This document shows positions 3,053 through 6,008 of a stretch of 6,052 nt of DNA, piece by piece. Origin of the DNA: a virus (Duplodnaviria > Heunggongvirae > Uroviricota > Caudoviricetes); the IMG/VR virus record IMGVR_UViG_2651869755_000005; one strand, written 5' to 3'. A model generated the notes under the pieces. It had not been told where the DNA came from, searched no databases, and worked only from the letters and a program-made list of their open reading frames with translations. The translations under genes and the position numbers were made by a program. Position 1 is the first letter of the stretch. Each line of letters starts with the position of its first letter.

Positions 3053-3436
3053 ATGCGTGATATTCAGATGGTTCTTGAGCGTTGGGGTGCGTGGGCGGCT
3101 AATAATCATGAAGATGTGACCTGGTCGTCCATTGCCGCCGGTTTTAAGGGATTAATTCCTTCAAAAGTAAAATCTCGCCCGCAATGTTGTGACGATGACG
3201 CGATGATCATTTGCGGGTGCATGGCCCGTCTGAAAAAGAACAACAGCGATTTACACGATTTATTAGTAGATTATTATGTATGTGGTATGACATTCATGTC
3301 ACTGGCAAGTAAGCATTGCTGCTCGGATGGTTATATCGGGAAAAGGTTACAGAAGGCTGAGGGCATAATTGAAGGGATGTTAATGGCATTAGATATCCGG
3401 TTAGATATGGATATCGTTGCTAATAATTCTAATTGA
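3053..3436 (+). CDS. quuD: Q-family late-gene antiterminator (QuuD-like), 127 aa
   Basis: [31 protein letters not shown]...[16 protein letters not shown]... matches DLP12 QuuD in length and sequence as I recall it; ATG 3053 with GGAG SD at 3042..3045. Track start 3038 (TTG) rejected. Confidence 0.88.
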
Positions 3437-3454
3437 TATGCAATTGTTTACTAA

Positions 3455-3486
3455 AAGTTATTAAAAATGGGGCGTGGAAACGCCCC
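3455..3486 (-). terminator. Candidate rho-independent terminator on the - strand (likely nmpC terminator)
   Basis: Stem GGGGCG (3469..3474) / CGCCCC (3481..3486) with loop TGGAAA; on the - strand the hairpin is followed by ATTTTTAATAACTT (complement of 3455..3468). Confidence 0.5.
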
Positions 3487-3573
3487 CAAAATAAAGGGTA
3501 ATATATAACAGAAGGTTTATATAGTAAGAAGCAAGGTAGTGCTTCTAAAGGAAGTGGCTTGAGGGCTCCACTT

Positions 3574-3613
3574 ATATGTTGCGGAGGCAAAGCCTCCCGC
3601 AACATATCTTTTT
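3574..3613 (+). terminator. Strong rho-independent terminator on the + strand downstream of quuD
   Basis: About 14-bp stem ATATGTTGCGGAGG / CCTCCCGCAACATAT (one bulged C), loop CAAAG, followed by CTTTTT (3608..3613). The - strand side lacks a T-tract, so it is + strand specific. Confidence 0.6.
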
Positions 3614-3624
3614 CGTAAGTCAGA

Positions 3625-4707
3625 TTAGAACTGATAAACCAGACCTACAGCGACGATGTCGTCGGTATCAATACCAGCTGTTTTGGTAAACTTACTATCG
3701 TCAATTAAGTTGATTTTGTAATCAACAAAAGTAGACATGTTTTTATTAAAGTAGTAAGTAGCACCGACATCGACATACTTGACTAAGTCTCGGTCACCAT
3801 GAACACCAAGGTCTTTACCTTTTGACTGAAGGTAAGCAACAGATGGGCGCAGACCGAAGTCAAACTGATATTGTGCTACTGCTTCAAAGTTTTGTGCTTT
3901 GTTTGCAATATGGTTATTACCAAAAACGGTCATATTCTGAGTTTCAGAATATGTGGTAGCCAGATAGATATTGTTCGCATCATATTTCAGGCCTGCAGCC
4001 CATACTTCCGCATTTTTGCCGGAGGCATTGAATTTGCTCTTACCATAGGCGACCTGACCGTCAGTGCGATCTGATTTAGCATAGGTTGCACCCACGCCGA
4101 ATCCTTCATACTCATAAGTAGTGGAGAAACCGAAACCATCACCATTGGCTTCAGTTACGTCAGTGCGGTCATTTTTACCCTGATACTGAGCAGCAAAGTT
4201 CAGGCCATCGACCAGACCAAAGAAGTCGTTGTTACGATAAGTTGCAACACCAGTAGTGCGACCAGTCATGAACACATCTGTTTGGGTCCAGGTATCACCA
4301 CCGAATTCTGGCAGAACGTCAGTCCACGCACCGATGTCGTATGCTACACCGTAGTTACGGCCGTAATCGATGGAGCCGTAATCACCAAATTTCAGGCCTG
4401 CAAATGCAAGACGGGTTTTGTCTTTGGAAGAACCTTGAGATTCAGCACGGTTGCCTTTGAATTCATATTCCCACTGACCGAAACCAGTCAGTTGATCGTT
4501 GATTTGGGTTTCACCTTTGAAGCCAAGACGGGCATAAGTAGTATCACCATCATCTGCATCATTAGAGGAGAAGTAGTGCTTGGCATTAACTTTCCCGTAT
4601 AGATCCAGCTTGTTACTGTCTTTATTATAAATTTCAGCTGCCTGAGCAGACATCGCCATCAGTACTGATGCAGCTACAGCAGAAATTGCCACTGTTAATT
4701 TTTTCAT
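3625..4707 (-). CDS. nmpC: Outer-membrane general porin of the OmpC/OmpF/PhoE family (NmpC-like), apparently intact, with signal peptide
   Basis: Signal peptide [23 protein letters not shown] then [16 protein letters not shown]...; C-terminal ...VGLVYQF with terminal Phe typical of beta-barrel OMPs. Start ATG (complement of 4705..4707) chosen over the track's upstream Met (4767) because of the signal peptide and an AAGGG SD. Position and orientation between quuD and essD match DLP12 nmpC. Confidence 0.9.
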
Positions 4708-4990
4708 TGTACGCCCTTTTTTTGAACTATTATTAAAAAATGATGTCACTGCGCGATAAATATTCATCTAATCAATGTGATTATTTCAAGATGTAAGTTT
4801 TAGTTTCTCATTTAATTTGTGAAGTAGATCTCTATTTTTATCTGAACCTTTTCTATCTAATCCTATTCATGGCTCTTGTCTGAACAAAAATAAATCTATT
4901 AGCTAATTTATATTAATGGCACTTATTTATAAGTGCTCTATAATTCTTTAGCTTAATTTAAACAAACTAAAAATAACATCGGAAATTATT
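4708..4990 (-). promoter_or_regulatory. AT-rich upstream/5' leader region of the porin gene (promoter not mapped)
   Basis: Long AT-rich non-coding stretch upstream of the porin start, containing an 18-bp inverted repeat (4919..4936) and several TCTAT/ATCTA repeats; porin genes usually carry long regulated leaders. No -35/-10 pair is assigned with confidence. Confidence 0.4.
4919..4936. repeat. Perfect inverted repeat GCACTTAT-TT-ATAAGTGC (8-bp arms, 2-bp spacer)
   Basis: Read directly from the sequence; arms are exact reverse complements. Candidate dimeric regulator operator, about 215 bp upstream of the porin start codon. Confidence 0.5.
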
Positions 4991-5133
4991 AACTGATTAT
5001 TTGTTGAAGTTTTCTTATGTATTTGTGGTGGTGTTTTGAACACTCGGTGGCATTCTCACAAATATCATTTAGTAGTTTACGTACGTAAAAAATTGGTTAT
5101 GCTGTTAAGAGTGGTTACTTCGTCACACAGCTT

Positions 5134-5166
5134 AAACCCGCCGTCGAGCGGGTTTTTCCATTTTTT
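5134..5166 (+). terminator. Rho-independent terminator on the + strand about 130 bp upstream of essD (candidate tR'-like late terminator)
   Basis: Stem AAACCCGC (5134..5141) / GCGGGTTT (5148..5155), loop CGTCGA, followed by TTCCATTTTTT (to 5166). The - strand side has only a 3-T run. Confidence 0.65.
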
Positions 5167-5295: not shown

Positions 5296-5511
5296 ATGAA
5301 ATCCATGGATAAGTTAACAACGGGTGTCGCCTATGGCACCTCAGCAGGTAGTGCCGGTTACTGGTTTTTACAGCTGCTCGATAAAGTCACGCCCTCACAG
5401 TGGGCAGCAATAGGTGTGCTGGGTAGCCTGGTATTTGGCCTGCTGACGTACCTGACAAACCTTTATTTCAAGATTAAAGAAGATAAGCGCAAGGCTGCGA
5501 GAGGTGAATAA
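5296..5511 (+). CDS. essD: Holin, phage 21 S-like pinholin (EssD-like), 71 aa, with dual-start motif
   Basis: [71 protein letters not shown] resembles DLP12 EssD / S21 as I recall them; Met1-Lys2-Ser3-Met4 gives the two-start holin/antiholin arrangement; GAGGTGGGG SD upstream; two hydrophobic segments. Confidence 0.9.
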
Positions 5512-6008
5512 TGCCTCCATCATTACGAAAAGCCGTTGCTGCTGCTATTGGTGGCGGAGCAATTGCTATAGCATCAGTGTTAATCACTGGCCCAAGTGGT
5601 AACGATGGTCTGGAAGGTGTCAGCTACATACCATACAAAGATATTGTTGGTGTATGGACTGTATGTCACGGGCATACAGGAAAAGACATCATGCTCGGTA
5701 AAACGTATACCAAAGCAGAATGCAAAGCCCTCCTGAATAAAGACCTTGCCACGGTCGCCAGACAAATTAACCCGTACATCAAAGTCGATATACCGGAAAC
5801 AATGCGCGGCGCTCTTTACTCATTCGTTTACAACGTGGGTGCTGGCAATTTCAGAACATCGACGCTTCTTCGCAAAATAAACCAGGGCGATATCAAAGGC
5901 GCATGTGATCAGCTACGTCGCTGGACATATGCTGGCGGTAAGCAATGGAAAGGTCTCATGACTCGTCGTGAGATTGAGCGTGAAATCTGTTTGTGGGGTC
6001 AGCAATGA
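5511..6008 (+). CDS. rrrD: Phage lysozyme with N-terminal signal-anchor-release (SAR) domain (RrrD/R21-like), 165 aa
   Basis: N-terminal Gly/Ala-rich weakly hydrophobic segment [20 protein letters not shown] followed by a lysozyme domain (...[16 protein letters not shown]...); start overlaps the essD stop (TAATG); pairing with a pinholin is the phage 21 arrangement. Confidence 0.9.

Follow-up and report, generated by a model that had tools for sequence, protein, structure and literature searches.

The quuD-nmpC spacer as the putative 3' UTR of the porin gene

The 188-nt spacer between the late antiterminator gene quuD and the convergent porin gene nmpC (positions 3437-3624) is most likely the hairpin-rich 3' untranslated region (UTR) of nmpC. 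It would end in that gene's own terminator and, with the gene and its promoter region, form a transferable module rather than a Q-dependent transcription unit. The module travels without Q, and a homologue of the late promoter pR' lies at 5076-5157. Therefore, we do not assign the spacer to a Q unit. At the level of sequence, three things could be demonstrated: where the module begins and ends, that its helices are conserved with compensatory changes, and where the pR' homologue lies.

The window (the whole 6,052-nt stretch of DNA analyzed here) represents the right arm of a lambdoid prophage that resembles DLP12/PA-2. After the end of a transposase gene, its + strand carries ren, ninB, a DNA methyltransferase gene, ninE-like genes, rusA, ylcG, and quuD, in that order. 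The main features are as follows.

1-206, 3' end of an IS3-family transposase gene, about 200 bp upstream of ren
732-765, + strand, strong intrinsic terminator between ren and ninB (AGGCCTGC...GCAGGCCT then TTTTATTT; d-score +35)
2468-2830, + strand, rusA
3053-3436, + strand, quuD, late antiterminator Q of the Q21/Q933W family, 127 aa
3457-3486, - strand, helix E and its U tail, intrinsic terminator of nmpC at the left end of the nmpC module (found by scan)
3502-3523, - strand, helix D, an A-U-only hairpin in the AU-rich stretch before the terminator (lambdoid class only)
3527-3546, - strand, helix C, AGAAGCA/UGCUUCU (in every independent fold)
3552-3573, - strand, helix B, with the near-invariant loop CCCUCA (3 of 8 pairs change on both sides)
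3574-3607 (to 3615 with the + strand tail), helix A, directly after the nmpC stop region (-21.4 kcal/mol)
3625-4707, - strand, nmpC/lc porin gene, intact, 360 aa from MKKLTV, stop codon at 3627-3625
4708-5072, - strand, nmpC upstream/regulatory region, AT-rich (27% GC versus 46% in the flanks), right part of the inserted module
5076-5157, + strand, pR' homologue (-35 TTTACG at 5076-5081, -10 TATGCT at 5098-5103, hairpin and T run at 5134-5157)
5296-5511, + strand, essD holin gene
5511-6008, + strand, rrrD endolysin gene

In this prophage copy, the early region (immunity, replication, and nutR) is seemingly interrupted or replaced. The ren-ninB terminator occupies the position of lambda tR2, and a strong tR2-like terminator site was listed at 732-755 by our consensus scan. 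QuuD gave a full-length match to Pfam PF06530 (E = 6.7e-54, residues 1-118), which was named the Q21/Q933W family by Yin et al. (10.1101/651190). NmpC matched Pfam Porin_1 (E = 1.9e-151), and its amino acid sequence is 90.7% identical to Lc of PA-2 and 81% identical to NmpC of P7. Rfam returned no matches at E <= 1 for the whole window on both strands.

The region is common. The 301 bases around the spacer were present in 2501 of 5426 complete Escherichia coli genomes and in 37 phage records, including those of isolated lambdoid phages, PA-2, and a 434 hybrid. We also considered whether the spacer might be a dispersed repeat of the REP type. This was ruled out by its copy number, which had a median of one and a maximum of three per genome.

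Two crossed hairpins with modest and lineage-dependent + strand potential

A sequence-only reading of this DNA had proposed that two terminators cross between quuD and nmpC, so that each transcript passes the hairpin of the other before it ends. The - strand hairpin and T run are as it described them (stem 3469-3486 and tail 3457-3468, read directly and located by script). The + strand hairpin is also where it was placed (hairpin 3574-3607, T run 3609-3613), but the word "strong" suits the stem and not the U run, which is modest. The crossed geometry itself was upheld because each hairpin scored as a terminator in its own direction only. The d'Aubenton-Carafa-type scores were +6.5 for helix A and -13.6 for helix E on the + strand and -25.8 for helix A and +9.0 for helix E on the - strand, with a threshold that is uncalibrated for the modern energy parameters used (the hairpin at 5134-5155 itself scored -2.3). 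Each hairpin has its U run on a single side, so neither qualifies as bidirectional. The predicted 3' ends on opposite strands overlap by about 150 nt because the long nmpC UTR contains the hairpin of the other direction.

The number of terminator-like sites in the window was not above chance (7, versus 5.9 +/- 2.1 in shuffled sequences). None of 200 shuffles folded as well as the 188-nt spacer on either strand (z = -4.0 and -5.4). Therefore, our verdict that these structures exceed chance comes from folding against shuffles and from conservation with compensatory changes, not from the pattern count.

Helix E has the makeup of an intrinsic terminator. Its stem and loop, GGGGCGT-TTCC-ACGCCCC at 3486-3469, are followed by ATTTTTAATAAC at 3468-3457, giving a 7-pair stem with 6 G-C pairs, a loop of 4 nt, and the tail AUUUUUAAUAAC with 5 U in its first 8 positions. 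The stem was invariant and the loop varied among eight E. coli variants. Three of the seven pairs change on both sides, and the U run is kept in all classes, including P7, E. fergusonii, and IncK. Helix E closes the nmpC module in lambdoid, P1-like, IncK, and E. albertii copies. DNA homology to the E. albertii copy stops directly after the U run, which suggests that the helix E terminator marks the end of the module. Judged by sequence, helix E is the real nmpC terminator, and the nmpC transcript should end at about 3460-3464, within the U run. The Term-seq supplements PMC7815308 and PMC12207403 had no entry for the locus when searched by gene name and predicted K-12 coordinates. K-12 3'-end data are uninformative for helix E because IS5 lies in nmpC. 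(The insertion follows nmpC codon 346 in K-12 and in the 434B hybrid.)

Helix A is a hairpin of 15 pairs with one bulge, ATATGTTGCGGAGGC-AAA-GCCTCCCGCAACATAT. The consensus scan missed it because of the bulge, and it was recovered in both whole-spacer folds. Next on the + strand comes CTTTTTCG at 3608-3615, so that the RNA would have a stem-loop with the U run CUUUUUCG (5 U in 8). The hairpin is kept in all copies; its T run is T5, T4, or T3, absent (P7), or poor (L209), depending on the lineage. The + strand tails were as follows.

Window and most DLP12/PA-2 types: CTTTTTCG, d-score +6.5
Several E. coli variants and E. albertii: CTTTTAG, d-score +4.0
L007 remnant: CTTTGAG (T3)
Q-linked L209 class: CCTTTATT (run CCUUUAUU), d-score -19.4
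P7 class: TCTTACCT (run UCUUACCU), d-score -20.6

The earlier suggestion that this hairpin ends transcription after Q and shields the porin gene is plausible for this lineage. However, helix A is also kept in copies without Q (P7 and IncK), where the T run can be lacking altogether. Since the hairpin persists in copies without the U run, we regard any + strand role as secondary and lineage specific. The run is T5 here but T4, T3, or poor in relatives, and so there is no demonstrated selection for + strand termination. Any putative termination at helix A on this strand would be modest and restricted to certain lineages.

A probable 165-nt nmpC 3' UTR with compensatory changes

Read on the - strand, the nmpC 3' UTR is 165 nt long and has four helices (A, B, C, and E). 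In the mRNA, the stop codon would be followed by helices A, B, and C, then the AU-rich stretch, and then helix E with its U run. All 10 sequences that were folded independently gave this same order, ending in a terminal hairpin and U run. MAFFT misaligned helices A and C between classes, so we built a curated alignment of the helices only. In this alignment, 97.9% of the cells in 30 pairs could pair and 9 of the 30 pairs changed on both sides, compared with 0 to 1 in slid controls, although the alignment (A3) was curated by hand around the proposed helices, which favors them. The compensatory changes mostly separate just two or three lineages and thus represent few independent covariation events.

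Helices B, C, and E also pointed to one strand. In helix B, G.U intermediates fit the nmpC-sense strand only. Helix C has one compensatory A-U to G-C change between classes, and a G.U wobble in the Res13 type fits the nmpC-sense strand only. All four scored G.U wobble events in helices B, C, and E were on the nmpC-sense strand, and a fifth was read from the L209 copy of helix E. These G.U pairs would be A.C mismatches on the + strand, which argues that selection acts on the porin mRNA. Helix A was uninformative in this respect, with one variant favoring each strand. It has three inner stem sequences in three classes, all on an AUAUG...CAUAU base, and the stem of the third, Q-linked class is wholly different (AUAUGCUGAGAAG/CUUCUCAGCAUAU). 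Helix D was absent from the P7 and IncK folds, and its region may just be single stranded and AU rich.

The CCCUCA loop of helix B (3557-3562, - strand) is kept in all classes except for CCCUUA in E. albertii. It hardly varies among the lambdoid, P1-like, and IncK copies, in which the surrounding stem covaries.

No such tail follows the chromosomal orthologues of the ompD type (in Salmonella, Citrobacter, Enterobacter, and others), where a single short terminator lies about 20 nt downstream of the stop codon. This suggests that only the mobile gene has the long structured UTR. IMG/VR yielded only NmpC relatives that were 100% identical and contributed no diversity, for which a degenerate DNA pattern search served better. 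A match to a Salmonella "phage," SPF_0923, was discarded as a chromosomal ompN region without UTR homology. Our literature search found no prior description of this long covarying UTR and nothing relevant on a small RNA derived from it.

nmpC and its UTR as inserted cargo between Q and pR'

QuuD is about 81 to 84% identical to Q proteins of the 933W/VT2-Sakai type, over residues 1-120 only (tblastn). DNA homology to Sakai stops near 3385 and resumes at 5073 with pR'. Relative to Stx phages, this break indicates an insertion of about 1.65 kb (roughly 3413-5072) after Q codon 120 and before pR'. Lambda_ev066 shares these nin genes and has a Q that is 87.5% identical (residues 1-120), with an antisense lipocalin gene in the slot. 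In these sequence comparisons, the Q-pR' slot behaves as a cargo insertion point.

Morons are independent promoter-gene-terminator cassettes in the late regions of lambdoid phages. The nmpC segment fits this description, with junctions at about 3413 and 5072 relative to Sakai, a lipocalin gene in its place in ev066, 27% GC upstream of the gene, and the conserved terminator E. The UTR, the gene, and the AT-rich promoter region would constitute one transferable moron, here lying between about Q codon 120 and pR'. In K-12, a sigma-70 promoter (PnmpC) with a mapped start site has been reported (PMC11677980).

The module also occurs in elements of other kinds. P7, which is P1-like and has no Q, is homologous to the window from 4769 down to 3493, so that the match continues for 130 nt after the stop codon. 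Helices A, B, C, and E likewise accompany nmpC in phage-plasmids of E. fergusonii, in an IncK plasmid, and in a prophage remnant of E. albertii that adjoins host genes.

Q proteins of this family diverge fully after the motif ...L(D/E)MD at about residue 120. Their tails are DIVANNSN in the window, 24 residues overlapping the pR' -35 in Sakai, ADCLR in ev066, and IDVTKLN in L209, and their 3' ends lie at 3400-3436 in the window, 1400-1516 in L005, 2840-2878 in L013, and 1959-1990 in L209. From these alignments, the Q 3' end looks like a point of recombination or cargo insertion with a dispensable tail. In ev066 (L013 2977-3010), a + strand terminator with a stem and a T8 run immediately precedes the 3' end of the antisense lipocalin gene, and this Q-lipocalin junction was present in 1107 of 5426 E. 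coli genomes. In E. coli Z1323CEC0015 (L007 3148-4479), an IS3-family element lies in the spacer between helices C and D (window position about 3522-3528), and no quuD is annotated upstream.

A probable Q-dependent unit upstream of essD

The segment at 5076-5157 is the probable Q-dependent unit, before essD. Window positions 5073-5157 correspond to Stx-phage DNA that covers the end of the Q gene and the bases directly behind it. They are 78% identical to VT2-Sakai DNA annotated as the late promoter, qut, and first terminator, and our consensus scan listed a terminator-like site at 5134-5155. Judged by this homology, Q acts at a predicted promoter 1.65 kb downstream of its own gene, across the inserted porin cassette. 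In Sakai, the primary start of PR' was mapped by dRNA-seq, and Term-seq placed the 3' end of tR' 258 nt downstream (PMC7547250). By our own arithmetic, 258 nt fits the distance in AP000422 between the annotated promoter and the second of its annotated terminators. What the window has in common with Sakai is only the promoter and first hairpin, and the mapped tR' of Sakai is the second terminator.

Alternative explanations for the spacer

The sequence-only reading had also raised the idea that the + strand hairpin is the tR' of a Q-dependent unit with its promoter in 3487-3573. We consider this extremely improbable. All that speaks for it is a -10-like TATAGT followed by a hairpin and T run. 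The motif, which lies at 3520-3525 and not at 3519-3524 as first given, has no usable -35, as had been recognized (the best candidates match 1 to 3 of 6 bases), and it is not conserved in the P7 class. Our scan found no promoter-like site in 3487-3573, a segment that is nmpC 3' UTR and is present in elements without Q. Downstream of 3613, such a unit would read nmpC antisense and not late genes, and the true pR' homologue lies at 5076-5103. Furthermore, the 434B hybrid carries the region with IS5 in nmpC and has a complete lysis cassette annotated downstream. A coding function is also very improbable. The candidates are PA-2 ORF1/CPT_434B_68, starting at ATG 3577 on the + strand, and a 58-aa ORF at 3605-3429 on the - strand. 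ORFs are annotated here in J02580 and OL657227, and there is a GAGGG 10 nt upstream of ATG 3577. However, single-base indels among close variants (alignment columns 42, 90, 212, and 220) break the frames, and we rejected both small-ORF readings for that reason. The + frame (3577-3690) encodes about 37 aa here versus 69 aa in PA-2, its start codon is inside the helix A stem, and variation in the spacer tracks base pairing, not codons. PA-2 ORF1 and CPT_434B_68 are probably spurious.

The spacer might instead hold two dedicated convergent terminators, with helix A serving the early quuD operon, helix E serving nmpC, and the crossing selected for complementary 3' ends. Each hairpin does score in its own direction only, helix A is followed by T5 or T4 in all but one close DLP12/PA-2-type copy, and in ev066, too, a + strand terminator precedes the antisense gene at the Q-antisense-cargo junction. 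Even so, we think this explanation unlikely, since P7 and IncK keep helix A with neither the T run nor Q, and the Q-linked L209 class has a poor tail. Also, going by the established biology of lambda, polymerase that starts at pR and is modified by N would be expected to read through such a terminator, so that early transcription through Q during infection would ignore the site. We favor the spacer as the nmpC 3' UTR, in which helix A and its short U run probably stop part of the unmodified RNA polymerase leaving quuD. This partial stop would limit antisense transcription into nmpC in a lysogen, and polymerase modified by N or Q would be expected to ignore the + strand signal. This role has two weak supports. 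One is the + strand terminator that ev066 has ahead of its antisense cargo gene. The other, which is indirect, comes from K-12, in which addition of an rrnB terminator to the spacer caused no change, and the authors of that study inferred that existing intrinsic terminators block quuD read-through (PMC11677980).

DISCUSSION

This analysis settles the transcription map for a prophage region that is very common in E. coli. The spacer is an ordinary terminator region of a cargo gene, with an unusually long covarying 3' UTR. Assigning it to the porin cassette averts the mis-annotation of a second late unit or of the small ORFs of PA-2 and 434B. It also draws attention to a covarying, unannotated 3' UTR that travels with a porin gene of lysogenic conversion.

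The architecture of helices A to C is compatible with stabilization of the mRNA or with a 3' UTR-derived small RNA. Helices A to C, the AU-rich stretch, and the terminator might conceivably constitute a functional RNA (either a regulatory small RNA derived from the 3' UTR or an element acting in cis on stability or insulation), and we offer this as a tentative suggestion with a rather low likelihood. Such an element would be carried with the porin gene among lambdoid phages, P1-like phage-plasmids, and conjugative plasmids, and the CCCUCA loop would be its candidate interaction site. The transcript of the Stx-phage late promoter gives the small RNA StxS in enterohemorrhagic E. coli. Hfq-dependent small RNAs derived from 3' UTRs, such as MalH, and StxS from pR'-tR' share with the nmpC 3' UTR a terminator after an AU- or U-rich stretch and conserved stem-loops, with the CCCUCA loop as a further point of likeness. 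The likeness is one of predicted architecture alone, and the nmpC UTR has no Rfam family.

The arrangement also resembles convergent genes with overlapping 3' UTRs or bidirectional terminators, in that quuD and nmpC converge with a predicted overlap of about 150 nt. Unlike bidirectional intrinsic terminators, neither spacer hairpin works in both directions by its score.

The pR'-Q element-tR' late unit of lambda-type phages (Q21/Q933W) has its counterpart in the predicted unit at 5076-5157 and in a Q of PF06530, whereas the spacer at 3437-3624 is not that unit. In Stx phages, the end of the Q gene contains the -35, whereas the window pR' homologue is about 1.65 kb from Q.

The closest comparison is with the lc moron of PA-2 and the nmpC moron of DLP12 (qsr'), which have the same gene in the same place between Q and the lysis genes. 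As in other morons, nmpC has its own AT-rich promoter region and terminator, its composition deviates, and it is absent or replaced in related phages. However, it ends in a 165-nt multihelical 3' UTR and not in a bare terminator, and nmpC with this UTR is also found in P1-like phage-plasmids and an IncK plasmid.
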